Shown here: positions 54,769 to 63,832 of the stretch, one piece after another
Position numbering within the stretch: the stretch's first letter is position 1
Layout of the letters: every line of letters starts with the position of its first letter
Source of the DNA: Candidatus Uhrbacteria bacterium CG_4_9_14_3_um_filter_41_35
GTDB taxonomy: Bacteria > Patescibacteriota > Patescibacteriia > UBA9934
DNA length: 64,000 bases
NCBI GenBank assembly: GCA_002791275.1
Contig: PFWT01000009.1
Coordinates: 72,797-136,796 of the forward strand
Direction of reading: 5' to 3'
Translations under genes and position numbers: made by a program
Notes under the pieces: model-generated
Told to the model about the DNA's origin: nothing
Seen by the model: only the letters and a program-made list of their open reading frames with translations
Database searches by the model: none

Positions 54769-56544
54769 TTAACCCAAAATTGCTTTAATTCTACGGATTC
54801 CAGCGCTTGAAGCTTCCTCTTTTTGTAATGTAAAGTGGCCAAGTTCAGCAGTATTTTCAACATGTGGACCACCACAGATTTCACTCGAGTAATCCCCAAT
54901 AAAATAAACCTTTACCTGATCACCAACGCTCTCGTATTTATCTTCAAATAGACCAATCGCTCCCCTTTTCTTTGCTTCAGCCACTGTTAATAACTCCTGA
55001 TGAACCGATAATTTTGCATCAATTTGCGCGTTTACAATATCTTCAACCCGTTTCTTCTGTTCATCTGTCATCTTTTCTGGGTGACTAAAATCAAACCTTA
55101 GTCTCTCCTGGGTAATATTTGAACCTTTTTGCTCAACGTGATCTCCAAGAACGTCTCGCAGTGCTTGGTGCAAGAGATGTGTTGCTGTATGTAGTTTTCT
55201 TGCTTCAACAGAATCGTCAACTAATCCGCCAGCAAATTTCTGACCAGCGCCAGCTCGACTCAATTCTTGATGGTTAACAAATTCAGATTCAAAAAGCTGT
55301 CTTTCAACTTTTTGACCGTACTCTGAAGCAATTTCTTCAGTGAGCTCCAAAGGAAAACCATAAGATTGATAAAGATCAAAGGCGTCCTTGCCAGTAATTT
55401 GGTTTTGTTCGTCCCAAAGCTTTTGAAGTTGTTTAAGTCCTTTTTGTACTGATTTATCAAATTTCGCCGCCTCTGTTAGTAACACTTGTACCAAACGATC
55501 CCGCTGTTCATCCAAAATTGGGTAACCAGCCCTTAAAGACGCTATAATCTCATCAACAACCTGCTCCACAAGATCCACTGAATCGATATTGAGTTTTCTC
55601 GCATGACGAATAGCTCTACGTACCAGTCGGCGTAAAATATAACCCTGATCTTTGTTGGATGGCTCAATGCCGTCCGATATGATCATAACCGACGACCGCA
55701 AGTGATCAGCGATAATTCTCATTGAAACACCAGTTTGATGTTCTGCATCGTATTCTTCCCTTGCTAAAAGAGAAATTCTTGCCAAAATTCCAGTAAATAA
55801 CTCAGTTTCGTAAACACTCTTTTTTCCTTGAAGTACCGCTGTTGTGCGTTCAAGACCCATTCCGGTATCCACATTTCGTTTTGCAAGCGGAAGAAGGGCT
55901 CCGGATTCATCTTTATTAAACTGCATGAACACATTATTCCAAATTTCGACCCAAGCGTTATTTTCAGGATCAAAATCTTCCGGTGCCTCACCTTCTCCGG
56001 TCCAATAAAAAATTTCTGTGTCCGGTCCCTGGGGTCCTGTGTGCTTACCACCAGCTGGCCACCAGTTCTGCTCATTGTTCAGTTTTGCGATGCGACCTCG
56101 ACTAACACCGAGTGCTAACCATTTTGTAAAAGCTTCTTCATCAAAAGGCGCATTCTCATCCCCTTCAAACACACTAAATGCCAATTTTTCAAGAGGGATA
56201 TTGAGCCACTCAGGGGAAGTCAGGAACTCAAAACTCCACTCAATGCTTTCGTTTTTGAAATAATCACCAAGCGACCAGTTTCCAAGCATTTCAAAAAAAG
56301 TTAGGTGAGTTCGATCGCCAACCTCATCAATATCACCGGTTCGAACACATTTCTGATAATCAACCAAACGTGTTCCAGCTGGGTGGTCCTCCCCCATTAA
56401 ATATGGAACCAGAGGATGCATACCAGCGGTTGTAAATAAAACCGAAGGATCGTTCACAGGAACCAGTGAAGCACTTGGTATTTCTCGATGCCCTTTTGAA
56501 GCAAAAAATTGAATATATTTTCGTCGAAGTTCGTTTGCAGTCAT
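54769..56544 (-). CDS. alaS: alanyl-tRNA synthetase, catalytic plus editing domains only
   Basis: 591 aa. The N-terminal class II AlaRS catalytic core (FTTAGMHPLVPY, WGGPAG-like region) and the editing-domain Zn motif (HTATHLLHQAL...CGGPHV) are present. The C-Ala domain is absent, since the ORF ends soon after the editing domain. Confidence 0.9.
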   Translation of the reverse strand: MTANELRRKYIQFFASKGHREIPSASLVPVNDPSVLFTTAGMHPLVPYLMGEDHPAGTRLVDYQKCVRTGDIDEVGDRTHLTFFEMLGNWSLGDYFKNESIEWSFEFLTSPEWLNIPLEKLAFSVFEGDENAPFDEEAFTKWLALGVSRGRIAKLNNEQNWWPAGGKHTGPQGPDTEIFYWTGEGEAPEDFDPENNAWVEIWNNVFMQFNKDESGALLPLAKRNVDTGMGLERTTAVLQGKKSVYETELFTGILARISLLAREEYDAEHQTGVSMRIIADHLRSSVMIISDGIEPSNKDQGYILRRLVRRAIRHARKLNIDSVDLVEQVVDEIIASLRAGYPILDEQRDRLVQVLLTEAAKFDKSVQKGLKQLQKLWDEQNQITGKDAFDLYQSYGFPLELTEEIASEYGQKVERQLFESEFVNHQELSRAGAGQKFAGGLVDDSVEARKLHTATHLLHQALRDVLGDHVEQKGSNITQERLRFDFSHPEKMTDEQKKRVEDIVNAQIDAKLSVHQELLTVAEAKKRGAIGLFEDKYESVGDQVKVYFIGDYSSEICGGPHVENTAELGHFTLQKEEASSAGIRRIKAILG

Positions 56545-56690
56545 AGTGCAGAAACTATACCAGATTAGTTATAATTATCAAGATATTTGTTGAAGCAAAA
56601 TATTCTTTCAAAACTAAAGAGACACTAGCTAATACTTTTGATAAATAAATAAATAAATGTCGTACTCTACAACCCACCTCTTTATTTTCA

Positions 56691-58304
56691 CTAGCCAATC
56701 TCGGTAACTATTTCCTCTTCAACCTTAACCTTTTTTATTAACTTACGTCTGAGTGCACTAATAAACACTGTCATTTCCTGACTCTTTAGAAGTAGTGCCG
56801 TTAAGGCGTAAACAAATAGTCCCACTGTTCCAGCCACAAAACCTTGAGTAAATATCCCCAAAACAGTGTCGATATTCAAATAGATGTCAAGAAGTTGTTT
56901 TAAAGCCTGAGTTACAAACGCAGCTACGAGTCCAGCTGATAAAAGTGTAATAATAGTTTTGAAAATTCTTCCCTCATCTAGCGAGCCCAGACGTTTTCTT
57001 AGCGGAATCCACAAAATTATCATTTGCACTATGGCCGATATTGAATAGGCCATTCCTAAACCTAAAACTCCAAATTCTTTTGTTAGGATTAGTGCCGAGA
57101 TAATATTAACTAGTCCGGTTGCGAGACCAACTATAAACGGGGTTATTGTGTTATCCATTGCAAAGTAACCACGTACCAATACAAAGACGATTGACTGCGC
57201 AAAGAGACTGACTGCGAAGAAGCCTAAAGTATTCGCAGTTAAAAATGTTGCTTCCCAGTCAAAGACTCCGGAACCAAGAACAACTCGAACAATCTGAGCT
57301 CGAAGCAGAATAAACATTACAGTTGCTGGAATAATAAAAAGAAGAATCTGTCTAATTGTCTGAGAGAACGATTTTATAAATTCCTCGGTTTTGTTTTTGT
57401 TTAGTAATTCACAAAAAGTTGGAAATGCAGCGATTGCGTAAGAAATGGCAATAACGCCGACCGGGAAAAAGTTTAGGTTGTACGCAAACTGTAAAACTGT
57501 CACTGAACCCGCAGTGAGTGTTGTGGCAATAACAGTCATTGCCACAAAATTTATCTGATTCACAGCCAGACCCATAACCCGCGGAGCCATATGTTTTAGC
57601 ATATACTGCGTGTCCTTATCTTTCCAAATAAGTATTGGCTGGTAGCGGTAACCTAGTGAAAAAATTCCGGCTGACTGCAATAGCAAATGCAAGATCGCGC
57701 CAAAACCTACGCCCCAGGCAAGGCCGATCTGACCTAAAATTGGGACGAAAAATATAGCTCCGGCGATAATTCCAAAGTTATAGAAAATTGGCGCTAAAGA
57801 ATACAGAACAAATCTCTTAGCCCCCTGTAAAGCTGAACCAAAAACCATTGAAATCGAGAGGAAAAACTGTGCTGTAAACATTATCCGAGCCATTTCAACC
57901 ACCGCCCTTTGCTTATCTGCATCAAAACCAACTGCCACAAAAGGCACCAACTGATTCATAAAAATAATTGCAAGCAAAATTGCTACACCAAAAGCAATTG
58001 CAATTAAATTTAACAATTTATTTGTTAAAAGCCAGGCTTTTTCTCTGGCATTTTCCGAATAGTTGCGTGTAAACAGCGGAATAAAGCTTGCTGATAAAGC
58101 TCCAACTACGATTAGCTGAAACAAAAAATCCGGTACTCTAAAAGCCGTAAAATAGATATCGAGCGTGTCGCCCGCCCCAAACTGACCGGCTAAAATGCGG
58201 TCGCGAATAAACCCGACAACGCGGGAAAGAATAGAAAACGAGGCGACAATGACTGCCGCACTCGTTATCGTGCTTGACTGACCATTTATAAATTTCTTGA
58301 ACAT
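56691..58304 (-). CDS. murJ: lipid II flippase MurJ
   Basis: 537 aa with 14 predicted TM helices. The N-terminal SRVVGFIRDRILAGQFGAGDTLDIYFTAFRVP matches the MurJ/MviN signature. Confidence 0.85.
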   Translation of the reverse strand: MFKKFINGQSSTITSAAVIVASFSILSRVVGFIRDRILAGQFGAGDTLDIYFTAFRVPDFLFQLIVVGALSASFIPLFTRNYSENAREKAWLLTNKLLNLIAIAFGVAILLAIIFMNQLVPFVAVGFDADKQRAVVEMARIMFTAQFFLSISMVFGSALQGAKRFVLYSLAPIFYNFGIIAGAIFFVPILGQIGLAWGVGFGAILHLLLQSAGIFSLGYRYQPILIWKDKDTQYMLKHMAPRVMGLAVNQINFVAMTVIATTLTAGSVTVLQFAYNLNFFPVGVIAISYAIAAFPTFCELLNKNKTEEFIKSFSQTIRQILLFIIPATVMFILLRAQIVRVVLGSGVFDWEATFLTANTLGFFAVSLFAQSIVFVLVRGYFAMDNTITPFIVGLATGLVNIISALILTKEFGVLGLGMAYSISAIVQMIILWIPLRKRLGSLDEGRIFKTIITLLSAGLVAAFVTQALKQLLDIYLNIDTVLGIFTQGFVAGTVGLFVYALTALLLKSQEMTVFISALRRKLIKKVKVEEEIVTEIG

Positions 58305-58307
58305 GTA

Positions 58308-60305
58308 CTACTTATTCTTCGGTTTCTGAGTTTTTGCCCTTTTAGAGGTAGGTTTTTTTGTTGGTTTTTTGCTTTCTGTCTTCTTCACAATTTTCTTTTT
58401 CGCTGGTTTTTTTGAAGTTTTCTTGGTTACTGCAGACGCAGATGCTATCTTTTGAAGACCATCTGAATCTGGCAAATCTTTTTGCTCAGTTTGAGCAAGC
58501 TCGTCTTCTCCCAAATCCCCTTCTTCGAGAAGTCCTTTGTCCTCTAGACTGTCTGCTGTGTCGTCTAAAGCCTCGTCATCAGAGTCCATCTCTAAATCAT
58601 CATCTAAACTGTCGAGACCCTCGATACCTTCTTCTTCATCATCAGTCTCTTCCTCAGTATCTGCTTCTGATTCTAAAGGATCTGCATCTTCTGACTCTTC
58701 TTCAACACTTTCGCTTTTATTATCCTCGATATCTAAATCAGATTCTGATGACTCGTCGTCGATAATTTCTTCATCGTCTTCGGCTATTTCTTCCTCCGTT
58801 TCTTCATTTTCGTCGACGACCATACTGTCTTCGTCTTCCTCAATCACATCTTCATCTTCGACAGTATCCTCGGTATTTTCGTCCTCGATATCGCTATCAA
58901 TCTCATCTTCTTCATCGTCCTCCTCTTCTACATTTTCGCTTCTTTCTATAATTTTTGCGTTCTTTGCAGTTTTTCCACTTCCACCTTTCTTTAGCGCGAG
59001 CGCTATGAATGCGAACATTAATAGTCCTAGCCCGCCAATTATAACCTTCACATATGGATTTGCTAGGTGGAAAAACGAGATCTGAATTTCCTCGGAGTCC
59101 ACTTTTACATTTCCAGCCTGATCAGTTACTGAGAGTTTTACTAAGTATTTTCCTGGTTTCAAAAATTTATGCTCAACCTGCGACTGTTGTGAAATTGAAC
59201 TATCGCCAAAGTCCCATTCAACCTGAATATTGTCGTTTGGATTTAATGACCTAAAACTGTAGGTTTTCCAGTCTATTGGCGAATAAACAAAAGAAGCATT
59301 TGTTGAGACAAGAATTAAATCGTTTGATGCAATTTCATTTGCTTTTTGTATATTTGAGTCAAGCGGTACCGCATCTTTAGAATCAGTAGCGCCATCACCG
59401 TCTGTGTCACTATTATTTGGATCTGTACCCAATACCGCTTCCTGACTGGCGTTTAAACCGTCACTATCAACATCAGCGCTTAAATCTGAGGCTGGATCTG
59501 GCGTAGGTTCGCTGGCTGGAATATCGTTTTTCGCGAGTGAATCATCGACTGGAGCTTCGCTAACTGTTGTAGTTAAGACCGGGTCAAAAACTGGGTCTGC
59601 CTGGACTACGGCACTCACTACTGGTTCATTACCCGTTATATTTGGATCAAGCGGAGCTGGATCTTTTGCATCGCCAACTCCATCACCGTCTGTATCTGCG
59701 TTAAAAGGTGAGGTGCCGAGTTCAGCTTCAACTGCGTCTGTAAGCCCATCATTGTCGTCGTCATCATCACAAACATCACCCATGCCATCATTATCAAAAT
59801 CAAGCTGGTCGGTATTTGCCGTGTTTACACAATTATCTCGATCGTTTGGAACAGTATCGTAATCATCGTCAACAACAATACTGAACAGTGTTGTAATCGC
59901 TACATCATTTGCTGGATTAGTGTCAGCCGGATCTGTTCCTTTAATTTCGGCGCGAATATTAAAATTGCCGTATGGCACCACAAAGTCCGCCCACACATCT
60001 TCGTTTGCACCACCACTAGCAGCTGAAACTATTTGACTTGGCCCAATAGGCTCACTGCCTTTATAAAAGAAAACATAGCCGGAAATATCGATATCGCCTT
60101 CATTCTTAATTGTTGCATAGATACGGATAGTGTCTCCCGCAACCAAAGTGGGTTCTGAAAAACGAATACCACTTGCATAGATACCCATGTCTGGCGCAGC
60201 GAGCGCAGCAAACGGCATTATGAGTAAAAATGAAGCTGTAATTATTATTCGTTTAAACATATGATTGCAGTATAGAGGAAAAGTAGAATTGTTCGAAGTG
60301 GACAA
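58308..60305 (-). CDS. bitopic surface protein with TSP3-like Ca-binding repeats, PKD domain, one TM helix, and poly-acidic/poly-Lys tail
   Basis: 665 aa. A signal peptide (alternative ATG at 60260) is followed by an ectodomain with D-x-D-x-D-G-x-x-D repeats (DNDGMGDVCDDDDDNDGLTD, DTDGDGVGDAKD, DTDGDGATDSKD) and a PKD-like segment (WDFGDSS...YLVKLSVTDQAGN). One TM helix follows, then about 170 aa with over 50% Asp/Glu, then about 45 aa of Lys-rich sequence. Confidence 0.7.
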   Translation of the reverse strand: MSTSNNSTFPLYCNHMFKRIIITASFLLIMPFAALAAPDMGIYASGIRFSEPTLVAGDTIRIYATIKNEGDIDISGYVFFYKGSEPIGPSQIVSAASGGANEDVWADFVVPYGNFNIRAEIKGTDPADTNPANDVAITTLFSIVVDDDYDTVPNDRDNCVNTANTDQLDFDNDGMGDVCDDDDDNDGLTDAVEAELGTSPFNADTDGDGVGDAKDPAPLDPNITGNEPVVSAVVQADPVFDPVLTTTVSEAPVDDSLAKNDIPASEPTPDPASDLSADVDSDGLNASQEAVLGTDPNNSDTDGDGATDSKDAVPLDSNIQKANEIASNDLILVSTNASFVYSPIDWKTYSFRSLNPNDNIQVEWDFGDSSISQQSQVEHKFLKPGKYLVKLSVTDQAGNVKVDSEEIQISFFHLANPYVKVIIGGLGLLMFAFIALALKKGGSGKTAKNAKIIERSENVEEEDDEEDEIDSDIEDENTEDTVEDEDVIEEDEDSMVVDENEETEEEIAEDDEEIIDDESSESDLDIEDNKSESVEEESEDADPLESEADTEEETDDEEEGIEGLDSLDDDLEMDSDDEALDDTADSLEDKGLLEEGDLGEDELAQTEQKDLPDSDGLQKIASASAVTKKTSKKPAKKKIVKKTESKKPTKKPTSKRAKTQKPKNK

Positions 60306-60878
60306 CTATTGTCTTAAAGTTGCGTGGGTTGGCCGTGTAATCCAAAGCTCCCTTGCGTAATCTTGGTGAATTTCTAGACGAAGTCTAAAAGTTGGGTGCA
60401 CCCTTACCACCACATTTGCAAGTACTAAATTCTTATACCCGGAAATTTCAACAGAAACCGTCTCGCCGTTTTGTAAATGTAAATCTCGAGCGTCGGTATC
60501 TGAACAGGTTAAATGCGGTTTTGGAATAATAAGACCTGCCGATAGCTCAACCTCCCCAACCGGACCGACTAAACGACAAGGCGCCGCCTCCATTAGGGTT
60601 CCTGTTTTTACCTCTGGTAAATTTAAGCCCAAAAATATTGCTTCTGTTGGCGTAATTTCAACATGACTTCTAGCCCAGTTTGGTCCCAGAACTCTAAGCT
60701 CTAGCGATCTTTTTAATTTTCCGTAAACCTGTACGGTGTCGTCATAAATAAACTGTCCTTGCTGGGTATGCTCTGCGCCAATCGTCATAGCGTGACCAAC
60801 GCCAAACAATTTTTTCTGATCATCTTCAGATAAATAAACGTGAGACGGAATAATATCAACTGGGATTGGCCTGGACAT
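60306..60878 (-). CDS. pduL: PduL-type phosphate acyltransferase (phosphotransacetylase analogue)
   Basis: 190 aa with two PduL repeats: RPIPVDIIPSHVYLSEDDQKKLFG and GLIIPKPHLTCSDTDARDLHLQNGETVSVEI, co-linear with Salmonella PduL. Confidence 0.8.
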   Translation of the reverse strand: MSRPIPVDIIPSHVYLSEDDQKKLFGVGHAMTIGAEHTQQGQFIYDDTVQVYGKLKRSLELRVLGPNWARSHVEITPTEAIFLGLNLPEVKTGTLMEAAPCRLVGPVGEVELSAGLIIPKPHLTCSDTDARDLHLQNGETVSVEISGYKNLVLANVVVRVHPTFRLRLEIHQDYARELWITRPTHATLRQ

Positions 60879-60881
60879 AAG

Positions 60882-61796
60882 TTATTTTTGACGGCGATCA
60901 ATGCCGATAGTTAAAAACCAAAATACAATAATTGAAAACGTGATGATTACTGAAACAATAAGTACATCATCCGCAAACGGTAGTCGTTCCACATTCATTC
61001 CGTAGTAACCCGTAATAAGTGTTGGTGGCATTAAAACAACTGAAATAACCGTAAGAAGTCTAATTATCTCGTTCATTCTATGTGAAAGCAGTGATTCGTT
61101 CACCTCAAATAAACCATCAACAATATTTTTTAGATTATCACTTACCACACTGGTGTTATCAAGCGAGTCTTTAACGTCGTCGAAATAAATATTAAGTTCA
61201 TTACCAATAAATGATTTTTTATTATGTTTGAACTGATCAACCAGCAACCGCTCTGGATCGATAATGTGTCTCAAAAATAAGATATTTCTGCGAAGAACCC
61301 CGAGCCGTTTTGTGGTTACTTTGGTGTTTAAATCATAAACCTGATTTTCAACCCTTTCCGTTTCCCTTACAAGTTCCCGTAAAATAACATTTGAGTCTCT
61401 AAAAATATAATCCAGCAGTTTATACAAAAAGTAACCAGTTGATTTTCCAAGGGCATCACGTTTTAAACCGGGGCTTCGTTTTACCCGAGCAAAGAAACGC
61501 TCCACTGTTTCAATTGGTTTACGTGAGGTAGTGATAACATAGTTTTTCCCTATGAATATCGCCAGATTTCGCTTAACTAACCTGTTACTCACAGTATCAA
61601 AAACTGGAATGTTTATAATAGAAAAAAGATAATATTTATAAACGTCGAGCTTAGAAAGTTCGGAGTCATCGCGGATGTCGTCAAAATCGAGCGGATGAAA
61701 TTTGAATTCTTTACGTAAAAAATCAAAGTCAGCATCTTTCAATTCCGAAAAATGCAACCAAACCATGCTTCCGCTTTTTATTTGTTCGTGTGACAT
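60882..61796 (-). CDS. corA: CorA-family Mg2+/Co2+ transporter
   Basis: 304 aa with a cytoplasmic N domain and two C-terminal TM helices. The YYGMNV (GMN) signature is present. Confidence 0.85.
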   Translation of the reverse strand: MSHEQIKSGSMVWLHFSELKDADFDFLRKEFKFHPLDFDDIRDDSELSKLDVYKYYLFSIINIPVFDTVSNRLVKRNLAIFIGKNYVITTSRKPIETVERFFARVKRSPGLKRDALGKSTGYFLYKLLDYIFRDSNVILRELVRETERVENQVYDLNTKVTTKRLGVLRRNILFLRHIIDPERLLVDQFKHNKKSFIGNELNIYFDDVKDSLDNTSVVSDNLKNIVDGLFEVNESLLSHRMNEIIRLLTVISVVLMPPTLITGYYGMNVERLPFADDVLIVSVIITFSIIVFWFLTIGIDRRQK

Positions 61797-61824
61797 GTCC
61801 CCCTAGTTAAATTTGTAAAATCTA

Positions 61825-62523
61825 TTACTCACTTTTTAAAATTTTTTCTTCTTTTTTTACATAAGACGCCACTGTTTTTCTATATCTACCAAAGCCAAGC
61901 ATAGCAAAAATAAATAAGGCTATCGTAATAATACCAAATAAGTTAATTAGGAAAAGCTGAATTGCATCCATCATCAAACTCCAGTCAGTCGAACCAAGAC
62001 CAATCCCGATGCTCACAAGTGGCGGTAACAGTGCCTCAGAAATTGCAACACCAGTAACCGCCTCTTTAATATGTTCGTACGAAAGAGCAAAGGCAGCCGC
62101 GGCACCAGCTGCAATAGCTACCGGAAACATGAAGGTAAAGTTGGTTGCTTCTAGAATTATTTTTGAGGAACCTAACGGTACGTAAAAAAATGTAATTAAA
62201 ACTGCTGTTGTAACCGCAATCATCACCGAAACAAAAATTGAAATCAGCGAAAGTTTTAGCATTTTAAAATCCATTACTAACGCCCCCATACTCACACCCA
62301 AAATTGGCCAAAGAAGAGGAGAAACCAACATAGCACCAATAACAACAGATGGGCTACCGTTCAATAAACCAAGTGTTGCAATAACGCTCGAAAAAAAAAC
62401 CAAGGCCATGAGGGTTTGTCGTGGCGAGCTTTCACGCACCACTTTATTTATAACCTCCGAATGATTTACATCTTGCGGATTGAATAGTTTATTCTTCTCC
62501 ATATTATTTCTTCCTGTAATCAA
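61825..62523 (-). CDS. DUF389-like hydrophobic-domain membrane protein
   Basis: 232 aa with 6 predicted TM helices. GAMLVSPLLWPILGVSMG resembles the DUF389 core as recalled from memory. Confidence 0.45.
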   Translation of the reverse strand: MITGRNNMEKNKLFNPQDVNHSEVINKVVRESSPRQTLMALVFFSSVIATLGLLNGSPSVVIGAMLVSPLLWPILGVSMGALVMDFKMLKLSLISIFVSVMIAVTTAVLITFFYVPLGSSKIILEATNFTFMFPVAIAAGAAAAFALSYEHIKEAVTGVAISEALLPPLVSIGIGLGSTDWSLMMDAIQLFLINLFGIITIALFIFAMLGFGRYRKTVASYVKKEEKILKSE

Positions 62524-63226
62524 ATGAATAGTTGAAGGCGTTATGCCGAATTGGACCTAGAAGCAGAATGTGCAGTTCAGCTAGAGTAAATTTTATGGCA
62601 ATGCTCAACATTCCATCTTTTTCTAAACGTCGATTTGAAACTGTTATTTCCACATTTGATAAAAAACCAAATTTTCCTATTTTATTAGCCCGAATAGCGT
62701 AATCATGGTCTTCGCAAAACAAAACCCCTTCGTCGAATCCATGGATTGCTTTATGCAAGCTCCGGCGGACTAAGATAAAAAATCCAGGTGCGTGCGGGTG
62801 TATATCTCCCCACATTCTAACATACTTATTATAAAACTTATGCCCAAAACGGTCGAGCTTTGAGCCAGACATTGGTACAACGTCCGCTGTTGCGATATCA
62901 AAACCCTTTTCCTGAAACTCTGCGAGCGCTTTTTTTAGAAAATTTTCATCGGTTAATTCCACATCTGCATCGAGAAACAGAATTAAATCCGTGGTTACCT
63001 TCCCTGCTCCGCGATTTCGACCAGGCCCTGGCATACCACCATCCACAACTACAGCTCCAAGCCCTGAAGCTATCTCTCTGGTTTTGTCTGTGGAGTGGGC
63101 ATCAGCCACAATAATTTGTTCTGGCAACACCGTTTGCTTATTAATCGAACGCAAAAGTCGAGGCAAATTTTCCTCTTCATTTTTTGCTGGAATTACAATT
63201 GCAAGAGTAGCCATAGGTGTCTCCAT
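62504..63226 (-). CDS. glycosyltransferase family 2 (Dpm1/GtrB-like)
   Basis: 240 aa with LAIVIPAKNEEENL...VADAHSTDKT...FLDADV, the GT-A DxD arrangement. Confidence 0.75.
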   Translation of the reverse strand: METPMATLAIVIPAKNEEENLPRLLRSINKQTVLPEQIIVADAHSTDKTREIASGLGAVVVDGGMPGPGRNRGAGKVTTDLILFLDADVELTDENFLKKALAEFQEKGFDIATADVVPMSGSKLDRFGHKFYNKYVRMWGDIHPHAPGFFILVRRSLHKAIHGFDEGVLFCEDHDYAIRANKIGKFGFLSNVEITVSNRRLEKDGMLSIAIKFTLAELHILLLGPIRHNAFNYSFDYRKK

Positions 63227-63270
63227 TATATCAGTTTTCAGTTAAATAAAAAATTACAGACCTTAAAAAG

Positions 63271-63741
63271 TTAGTCTGTAATTTTTGTAAGTTCGTACAT
63301 TGCGATTCCGGAAGCTACCGAAACGTTCAGCGAGCGTTTTTTTCCCATCTCAATTTCAAACAGTCCGTCAAGTAAAGCAACCGTATTCTGATCAATTCCC
63401 TCTACTTCGTTCCCGAGCACCACAGCCAATTTATTTGATTTTGCAAGTTCCGAGCTTTGCGCGGTACCAAGTTTAATCGAGCCTTCGCCCTGTTCAAGAC
63501 CAAACACTTTGTAACCAGCCTCCTTCACTTTTTGAATAACCGTATTAATATCCCCACCTTCCCATGCGATTAAATCCTCTGCACCAAGCGCAACCTTTGA
63601 AATTTCCTTGCGCGGAGGCCTCGCAGTAATACCTGTTAAATATAATTTTTCAACATTAAAAGCTCCTGCGTTTCGAAAAATCGAACCTACGTTGTGCATA
63701 CTTCTAATATTGTGAGCAATAACTATCATAGCAAAGAGCAT
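63271..63741 (-). CDS. SpoU/TrmH-family tRNA/rRNA 2'-O-methyltransferase (short, TrmL-like size)
   Basis: The internal ATG at 63741 (MLFAMIVIAHNIRSMHNVGSIFRNAGAF...) gives about 156 aa. It carries SpoU motifs 1-3 (NVGSIFRN, VVLGNEVEGI, VASGIAMYE). The track start at 63828 would leave no room for the divergent promoter. Confidence 0.75.
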   Translation of the reverse strand: MLFAMIVIAHNIRSMHNVGSIFRNAGAFNVEKLYLTGITARPPRKEISKVALGAEDLIAWEGGDINTVIQKVKEAGYKVFGLEQGEGSIKLGTAQSSELAKSNKLAVVLGNEVEGIDQNTVALLDGLFEIEMGKKRSLNVSVASGIAMYELTKITD

Positions 63742-63803
63742 AAACTTATTCCGAAGTTGAGTCAATAAATATACACAACAAAATACCAAAATATCGGAGT
63801 TTT

Positions 63804-63832
63804 CTTGACTAAAGTAAAGCAAAACCATATTA
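63804..63832 (+). promoter_or_regulatory. sigma70-like promoter (TTGACT-17-TATTAT) 9 nt upstream of the ATG at 63842
   Basis: The -35 is at 63804-63809 and the -10 at 63827-63832. There is no SD and the leader is short. Confidence 0.45.

Follow-up and report, generated by a model that had tools for sequence, protein, structure and literature searches.

The gene that lies directly upstream of murJ in a 64,000-nucleotide (nt) stretch of Candidatus Uhrbacteria bacterium CG_4_9_14_3_um_filter_41_35 (contig PFWT01000009.1, positions 72,797 to 136,796 of the forward strand; hereafter the window) raises the question of what use a membrane-anchored surface protein may have for a tail in which a long acidic run is followed by a Lys-rich C-terminus. 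A sequence-only reading of this locus had described a Ca-binding, adhesin-like ectodomain joined to the tail by a single transmembrane (TM) helix, and had likened the tail to a polyelectrolyte, or to a histone-like module for the binding of DNA or polyphosphate (polyP). The results presented here place the protein, through domains that are co-linear over its full length and through synteny with murJ, in an unnamed Uhrbacteria/Patescibacteria family linked to this gene, and they identify its tail as an extreme case, in length, of an accessory region that is hypervariable, rather than as a conserved module.

The charge segregation that drew attention to the tail is pronounced. Numbered throughout on the 650-residue product, the tail comprises 227 residues with an overall net charge of about -62 and, beyond a short basic stretch at the membrane, consists of an acid block of 163 residues (40 Asp and 50 Glu, or 55% D/E; net charge -86; just 2 Pro), a neutral spacer of 11 residues and a Lys block of 38 residues (50% K/R, net charge +18) with the sequence KKKIVKK at positions 621-627. 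Segregation of charge lies about 8 standard deviations above shuffles of the same tail (kappa about 0.44), and no other open reading frame (ORF) in the window contains a comparable acid run. The earlier description of an acidic and then Lys-rich tail is hence accurate, and AlphaFold2 predicts this tail to be disordered, with predicted local distance difference test (pLDDT) values below 50 (mostly below 50 in the acid block). Neither the tail nor the Lys block matched any Pfam model, even at E<=10, and a tail-only homology search of 5.8 billion proteins returned nothing. A recent origin of the acid block by slippage was considered and rejected, because a tandem-repeat search of the tail DNA yielded only two tiny, low-scoring repeats, none of them significant, and because the Asp and Glu codons are mixed (GAA, GAG, GAT and GAC).

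The family to which the protein belongs comprises 1,852 detectable relatives, the full-length ones of which, where annotated, are PKD-domain proteins of Candidatus Uhrbacteria or of the Patescibacteria group. The query and 105 co-linear homologs, at 33-48% identity to it, form an alignment of 106 sequences with 27 invariant columns. Orthologs at the species level were obtained by scanning species-representative genomes with the family-specific N-terminal domain, which yielded 133 relatives, 80 fetched loci and 76 complete genes. Two broader searches were set aside. A full-length profile run against 1.84 billion representatives gave 224,736 matches, swamped by giant proteins with multiple PKD domains and thrombospondin type-3 (TSP3) repeats, and added nothing to the tail statistics. 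A whole-protein metagenome scan for near-identical variants, in which only distant TSP3 proteins were found among the matches listed and the query's own contigs were missing, was uninformative because low-complexity patterns (CDDDDDND, EEEDDEED) dominated it.

Within this family the tail is highly variable. Its length ranges from 3 to 243 residues (median 34) in 117 close homologs and from 4 to 229 residues (median 13) in the 76 species-level orthologs, 47 of which have tails of at most 20 residues and only 6 of which exceed 100; across 166 distinct tails the median is 28.5 residues, and only three reach 200 residues, the query among them. About 85-90% of the orthologs lack the acid block, and in a neighbor-joining (NJ) ordering of the ectodomain the long tails are interspersed with short-tailed relatives, which suggests that tails have grown and shrunk repeatedly. 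Identity in three pairs of close orthologs amounts to 0.38-0.58 over the acid middle, a region with up to 13 gap columns and in which identity is inflated by composition, to 0.62-0.81 over the last 16 residues and to 0.68-0.88 over the ectodomain.

Such variability brings to the fore a neutral expansion of low-complexity sequence, in which only the short stop-transfer stretch would matter and both the acid block and the long Lys run would be tolerated drift. The predominance of tails of at most 20 residues and the fast, indel-bearing evolution of the acid block are what this process would produce, and the lack of detectable homologs or domains for the tail and the absence of a significant coupling between D/E and K/R counts (Spearman 0.36, p=0.16) agree with it. 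An addition to the same explanation holds that the richness in Lys close to the stop codon may in part reflect selection for an A-rich, unstructured mRNA leader of a coupled murJ; it finds support in the A-rich last 60 nt of the gene and in the murJ start, 3 nt past the stop, but the Lys block (114 nt) is far longer than a translation-initiation region.

Several properties of the long tails are nonetheless difficult to reconcile with neutral expansion, which we regard as rather unlikely. These tails are acid first and basic last, never the reverse: all 12 listed tails of at least 95 residues among the close homologs follow this order, 8 of the 9 tails longer than 60 residues in the species representatives end net-positive, and the long acidic blocks, sporadic as they are, always lie between the stop-transfer residues and the basic C-terminus, a basic tip being found in all long-tailed orthologs but one. 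In close pairs the conservation of this tip roughly equals that of the folded domains. A short pattern, [KR][IVL]x[IV][KR], situated 7-12 residues from the C-terminus, occurs in 42% of the tails of at least 15 residues and in 4% of shuffles, an approximately 10-fold enrichment; it is usually followed by acidic residues (KISVRHDD, RIIVREE and KLTVRNLDGE are examples, from P0025, P0039, P0050, P0067, P0102 and others) and has the appearance of a short linear motif. In the Lys-rich subclade to which the query belongs the variant is looser, KKKIVKKTES (residues 621-630; window 58380-58400, minus strand). Acid runs are, moreover, specific to the family and not genome-wide, since related loci totalling 599 kb contain 25 ORFs that reach at least 20 D/E per 40 residues and 24 of them lie at the position of the family gene, roughly half of those 24 scoring through the TSP3 repeats of the ectodomain and not through the tail. 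Lastly, in every long tail, the longest of which has 243 codons, the reading frame stays open until a few nt from murJ.

Hence, the possibility raised in the sequence-only reading that the tail might be a rapidly varying, lineage-specific expansion applies to its variable part, in which lengths run from 3 to 243 residues, acid blocks are sporadic and indels abound, but not to the basic tip and its motif, which are better conserved. Only the basic stop-transfer stretch and the basic tip are under visible constraint, and the acid block is an optional, fast-evolving and lineage-specific elaboration that has reached an extreme in this organism, so that the tail reads best as a variable acidic spacer that bears a constrained basic tip. 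An internally neutralised polyampholyte was also entertained and dropped, given that strongly acidic tails (D/E:K/R >1.5) all stay net negative and charges are not coupled.

Four members of the family (P0018, P0031, P0082 and P0029) present a different kind of long tail, of 80-165 residues, almost purely basic and rich in P/A/T/S/K, and three of these tails contain few acidic residues; in P0031 a KKPA(R/K)GRSGSAGK unit is internally duplicated. The basic part of the tail can therefore expand alone.

In comparison with the tail, the linkage to murJ is strikingly uniform. The sequence-only reading had placed the gene upstream of murJ, and the murJ ATG indeed starts 3 nt past its stop codon (TAG-TAC-ATG). 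This arrangement recurs in the family: murJ lies immediately downstream on the same strand in 72 of the 76 species-level orthologs, with a gap within 30 nt in 66 of those 72 and of at most 10 nt, or an overlap, in 61. Family genes often overlap the murJ start, and the gene is probably translationally coupled to murJ. In the literature searched, which covered the family, Uhrbacteria and MurJ, thrombospondin repeats in the candidate phyla radiation (CPR) and MtsC, the family and its murJ linkage are undescribed. At the other end of the gene, the gap of 0 nt to the pduL stop that had been reported turns out to be an ORF-calling artefact. The minus-strand ORF 58308..60305 exists and had been accurately described except for its start codon: TTG at 60305 simply opens the longest possible frame, whereas gene callers applied to public assemblies (contigs in 43 blocks) begin at ATG 60260 and give a product of exactly 650 residues, and the corresponding Met is the first, nearly invariant column of the 106-sequence family alignment. 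ATG 60260 is thus the most likely gene start, and the true distance to pduL is therefore 45 nt.

The product of this gene, the features of which are compiled in Table 1, opens with a signal peptide (MFKRIIITASFLLIMPFAALA, with the predicted cut before AP), as anticipated in the sequence-only reading; its layout is that of a cleavable peptide, with a basic n-region (MFKR), a hydrophobic core and an A-x-A site (A-L-A followed by A-P). In the 106 homologs A21 is nearly invariant and D24 invariant. The most membrane-distal domain of the mature protein adopts, in the AlphaFold2 model computed with the family alignment (pLDDT >90 for residues 21-210 and 320-420), a CARDB-like fold, and its top Foldseek matches in the PDB are the CARDB structures 3idu and 2kl6 of Pyrococcus PF1109 (probability 1.0; TM-score, normalised to the target, 0.70-0.77). 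The Pfam CARDB match (PF07705) is marginal on sequence (E 0.035, 14.8 bits against a cut-off of 22.7), although the same model is precomputed for 4 homologs, and sequence membership of the predicted fold in CARDB is accordingly graded as marginal.

The TSP3-type Ca-binding repeats proposed earlier are true type-3 repeats. On the single sequence, Pfam places TSP3_bac (PF18884; 5.9e-5, 23.3 bits) and TSP_3 (PF02412; 7e-3, 16.4 bits) below their cut-off of 25, but the 106-member family profile, run against PDB sequences, recovers COMP at 1.9e-50, thrombospondin-2 at 1e-45 and an OmpA-family protein at 5e-6, and its alignment to COMP and thrombospondin-2 keeps the Asp ladder and the DNC...GDxCD Cys pair in register. 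Within the region lie the Cys144-Cys164 pair and, at residues 169-208, the first of the bacterial-type TSP3 units; neither Cys varies in the family alignment, and the Asp columns, like the D/N/C columns in general, are likewise invariant. C144 and C164 are the only two Cys of the whole protein and both fall in the extracytoplasmic type-3 repeat, which fits an extracytoplasmic disulfide. With thrombospondin/COMP and with bacterial TSP3 proteins (the OmpA-family protein 5wtl and Myxococcus MtsC) the query shares the DxDxDGxxDxxDNC...Q.D.D.DG.GD.CD repeat and the Cys pair; in contrast to them it has about two type-3 units and two short bacterial-type units, without the C-terminal lectin-like domain of thrombospondins or the OmpA domain of 5wtl. 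Nor is it a member of the MtsC family (NF047638, a Myxococcus cell-cell cohesion protein), since the NCBIfam model throspo3_MtsC covers the TSP3 repeats only (5.6e-13, 48.6 bits, far below the equivalog cut-off of 350) and MYXO-CTERM is lacking. The second bacterial-type unit is an internal duplicate of the first (window 59637-59756), with 63% identity over 40 residues (E 7e-15), from which it is separated by a disordered linker that is variable and unaligned across the family; both the linker and the second unit are predicted with low confidence.

The PKD-like segment of the sequence-only reading is a true PKD domain, with PKD_4 (PF18911; 4.9e-12, 46.2 bits against 27) and PKD (PF00801; 1.4e-9, 38.3 bits against 23.5) both above cut-off, a WDFGD motif at residues 349-353 and predicted strands across 324-394. 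The PKD domains of ColH and PrtV match it by fold and by sequence, and these proteins and the CARDB surface protein PF1109 of Pyrococcus share with the query the Ig-like beta-sandwich folds of adhesion and spacer modules. Unlike such surface proteins, the query has no enzymatic domain; it contains a single copy of each fold, and its anchor is a C-terminal TM helix followed by a charged tail. Between the PKD domain and the membrane, the family presents the consensus SFFxLxNP, in which N401 is invariant and F396 nearly so in the 106 sequences. The Ca-binding, adhesin-like ectodomain described earlier is thus borne out by Pfam, fold and family-profile matches. Ectodomain and TM helix together measure 423 residues in the query and typically 345-390 in its homologs, most of which it exceeds, indicating expansion outside the membrane as well.

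Beyond the signal peptide, the protein has a single further hydrophobic helix, at residues 404-423. There is no K/R among the 15 residues on its outer side as opposed to 5 on its inner side, and the first 8 residues of the tail are net positive in 94% of the homologs. Because of the signal peptide, the extracytoplasmic-type domains, the placement of the Cys pair and this K/R asymmetry (positive-inside rule), the protein is predicted to be single-pass and N-out/C-in (type I) with a cytoplasmic tail, in agreement with the topology assumed in the sequence-only reading. A sub-threshold match of the NCBIfam model TIGR04561 ('membra_charge') to the TM helix and the membrane-proximal end of the charged tail (residues 403-460; E 0.039, 14.2 bits against 30) is probably compositional.

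Table 1. Coordinates in the window of the query gene, of the regions of its predicted product and of adjacent features.
Feature	Residues	Window position	Strand	Basis
Coding sequence, 650-aa protein		58308..60260	-	stop TAG at 58308-58310
Signal peptide	1-21	60198..60260	-	direct sequence reading, hydropathy; predicted helix 2-18
N-terminal beta-sandwich, CARDB-like fold	22-132	59865..60197	-	pLDDT 95-98, Foldseek
Thrombospondin type-3 Ca-binding repeats	131-208	59637..59870	-	family profile, Pfam, NCBIfam
Disordered P/T/S/D-rich ectodomain linker	209-264	59469..59636	-	pLDDT 39-55
Second bacterial-type TSP3 unit	265-304	59349..59468	-	internal duplicate of residues 169-208
PKD (Ig-like) domain	318-395	59076..59309	-	Pfam, pLDDT >90
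Juxtamembrane motif FFHLANP, extracytoplasmic	396-402	59055..59075	-	family alignment
TM helix	404-423	58992..59051	-	hydropathy; AlphaFold2 helix 402-425, high pLDDT
Basic juxtamembrane stop-transfer stretch (KKGGSGKTAKNAKII, net +5)	424-438	58947..58991	-	charge count
Acidic disordered block	439-601	58458..58946	-	charge count, pLDDT
Lys-rich basic tip	613-650	58311..58424	-	charge count
Antisense poly-Ser ORF, 182 aa, not a gene		58537..59085	+	translation
murJ (lipid II flippase)		56691..58304	-	Pfam MurJ 3.6e-82
PTAC/PduL-type phosphotransacylase gene		60306..60878	-	Pfam PTAC 1.3e-37

With these elements in place, we favor, with middling confidence, a reading in which a Ca2+-stiffened scaffold outside the membrane is combined, inside it, with a basic tip acting as a tethered ligand and an acid block acting as a generic spacer or competitor. 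On the outer side, the distal CARDB fold, the disulfide-bearing TSP3 'wire', the flexible linker, the membrane-proximal PKD domain and the FFxLxNP collar would build a Ca2+-stiffened stalk, and the domain types fit a surface, adhesion or wall-associated scaffold. On the inner side, the tail would be made up of the basic stop-transfer stretch, the hypervariable acidic spacer and the basic tip, the latter a tethered ligand that would engage something anionic on the cytoplasmic side of the membrane, for instance nucleic acid or the head groups of phospholipids. The acid block, self-repelling and repelled by the membrane, would not be a sequence-specific domain and would work generically, spacing the tip out or competing for it and so governing how far it reaches or how available it is.

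There is precedent for the cytoplasmic half of this arrangement. The C-terminal linker and peptide of FtsZ and the linker and acidic tip of SSB are hypervariable low-complexity linkers that bear a short conserved end, and this pattern of a linker plus a conserved tip is common to the query family. FtsZ and SSB are soluble and have known partners, whereas the linker of the query is membrane-tethered, extremely acidic and often absent from its family. An acidic-then-basic diblock in a bitopic protein is found in the (Glu-Pro)n-(Lys-Pro)n spacer of TonB, which is periplasmic, Pro-rich and rigid, in contrast to the predicted cytoplasmic and disordered tail of the query, with 2 Pro in its acid block.

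Several points weigh against the tethered-tip reading. The topology is deduced from rules, and no homology ties the basic tip to any ligand; the Lys block of the query, furthermore, is without the canonical K-I-x-V-R-x-E-E motif and has the loose variant only. Most orthologs work with a tail of 4-20 residues, so the long tail may do nothing, and the NJ tree is crude, which makes the number of independent expansions uncertain. The adjacency to murJ could, in turn, be gene order inherited within one lineage and not a functional link, and the neighboring genes (SpoU, GT2, DUF389, CorA, PTAC and AlaRS) are functionally mixed.

Among bitopic envelope proteins whose cytoplasmic tails are disordered and charged, the best architectural analogue of the query is HubP/FimV/TspA (Vibrio, Shewanella, Pseudomonas), with which it has in common a single TM helix and a large, acidic and disordered cytoplasmic region. 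HubP/FimV proteins are composed of a signal peptide, a periplasmic region with Ig-like and LysM parts, a TM helix, an unstructured acidic cytoplasmic region and a C-terminal client-binding domain, and the size and sequence of the acidic region vary strongly even between close species (PMC12918733). By analogy, the acidic region of the query could be a membrane-anchored anionic scaffold, possibly forming condensates with the tip, that recruits basic clients to sites defined by the wall-embedded ectodomain and by MurJ. The layout of the query (signal peptide, Ig-like part, TM helix, variable acidic disordered cytoplasmic region and C-terminal element) and its linkage to murJ, a wall-synthesis gene, are congruent with such a role. 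However, the query has no LysM (Pfam, NCBIfam), no FimV/TPR domain and none of the 46-residue acidic repeats, and its C-terminus is instead a Lys-rich tip; by its domain content it is not a HubP/FimV member. The acid block, moreover, is optional in the query family and, being missing from most orthologs, cannot be the core function of the family, and the search for client genes was confined to the conserved block around the gene. A HubP/FimV-like hub is, on balance, improbable. We give equally little credence to a more elaborate envelope-spanning organiser, in which a Ca2+-dependent stalk would be coupled to MurJ and the diblock tail would be an electrostatic hub or condensate tethering the nucleoid, ribosomes or basic clients; Patescibacteria would then have evolved a HubP-like landmark of their own, the reach of which would be tuned by the length of the tail.

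The chances of the module initially proposed, a histone-like polyelectrolyte that would connect a surface adhesin with the nucleoid or with polyP by binding DNA or polyP, appear similarly slim. Cells of the Uhrbacteria-type group are very small, and their nucleoid lies near the membrane, the Lys block has PAKK/PTKK-type tetrapeptides together with its high content in K/R, and the basic tip is the conserved part of the tail, all of which would suit this function. Yet such tetrapeptides number only 2-3 in the 38 residues of the Lys block, which has no long PAKK/KAAK arrays, no match to H1, Hc1, HU-tail or any other Pfam model was obtained at E<=10, many orthologs have only 4-13 basic or neutral tail residues, and the charge of the whole tail would repel DNA and polyP. 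In view of the empty Pfam and tail-only searches, the histone-like claim is not upheld in the form in which it was made.

A C-terminal sorting signal, in which the FFxLxNP motif, the TM helix and the basic cluster would be cut by a sortase-like enzyme so that the ectodomain is released or re-anchored and the tail discarded, is very improbable: the short-tailed majority does display the motif-TM-basic layout, and the motif, adjoining the membrane on its outer side, has an Asn that never varies and a Phe that rarely does, but no NCBIfam sorting-domain model matched the query C-terminus (including FFxLxNP) at E<=10, LPXTG_anchor matched only one of five homologs and weakly so (E 0.082), tails of up to 243 residues with conserved tips, or of 227 as in the query, would be senseless on a discarded propeptide, and no cognate processing enzyme was identified, none having been searched for.

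The antisense poly-Ser ORF noted in the sequence-only reading is present, but it is the expected by-product of reading the GAN-rich codons of the acid block in the reverse frame, and it falls wholly within the acid-block and TM coding region of the conserved gene. Scanning for promoters and terminators gave promoter-like sites at chance level only and no terminator-like site at either end of the gene, with an overall terminator count slightly above the shuffle mean, and a tRNA scan of the 64-kb window found zero tRNAs. The PTAC gene lies upstream in 47 of the 76 orthologous loci, and six of the seven contigs inspected present the order SpoU, GT2, DUF389, CorA (sometimes missing), PTAC, query gene, MurJ, alanyl-tRNA synthetase (AlaRS), infA and rpsM. 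This block of mixed function, from the SpoU methylase to rpsM (window 54769-63828, minus strand), keeps its order across orthologs that are approximately 40% identical (L001-L012). The seventh contig carries a divergent subfamily located elsewhere (P0099; also P0074, P0085, P0105 and P0116), with proteins of approximately 480-500 residues that end in a conserved ...KKKNE(L/I)NEIDGEIK; the P0099 gene (L010, 6001-7506) lies between dnaE and a gene of 393 residues of unknown function followed by thrS, murJ is not adjacent to it, and the subfamily is possibly a paralogous lineage.

Two of the neighboring genes deserve a separate comment. AlaRS (window 54769-56544, minus strand) has only 591 residues, with catalytic and SAD domains by Pfam, and its orthologs in related loci have 591-626; typical bacterial AlaRS is far longer, and the C-terminal part appears to be missing. 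The PduL/PTAC-type enzyme is a stand-alone protein of 190 residues, with no microcompartment gene among the neighbors scanned, and may be the acetyl-phosphate-forming step of a fermentative pathway. With regard to the source records, many metagenome-assembled genomes with the Patescibacteria-type locus (L063, L067, L071, L072, L074 and others) are titled 'uncultured Gammaproteobacteria bacterium', and the title of L135 reads 'Candidatus Kapaibacterium sp.'; placeholder naming, misassignment or contamination of bins would seem to account for such titles.

How the envelope is built, and how cells attach to other cells, is almost unexplored in the uncultured Uhrbacteria and related Patescibacteria. 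The analysis defines in these organisms a conserved family of surface proteins that databases label merely as 'PKD domain-containing protein', and corrects the attractive but unsupported reading of its tail as a conserved histone-like module. Tails that range from 3 to 243 residues within one family provide a natural series on the origin of disordered, charge-blocked cytoplasmic tails and on the constraints that act on them. The more durable finding, however, is the near-universal coupling of the family to murJ in Uhrbacteria-type genomes, which makes it a candidate for a lineage-specific partner of wall synthesis, or for a surface stalk.

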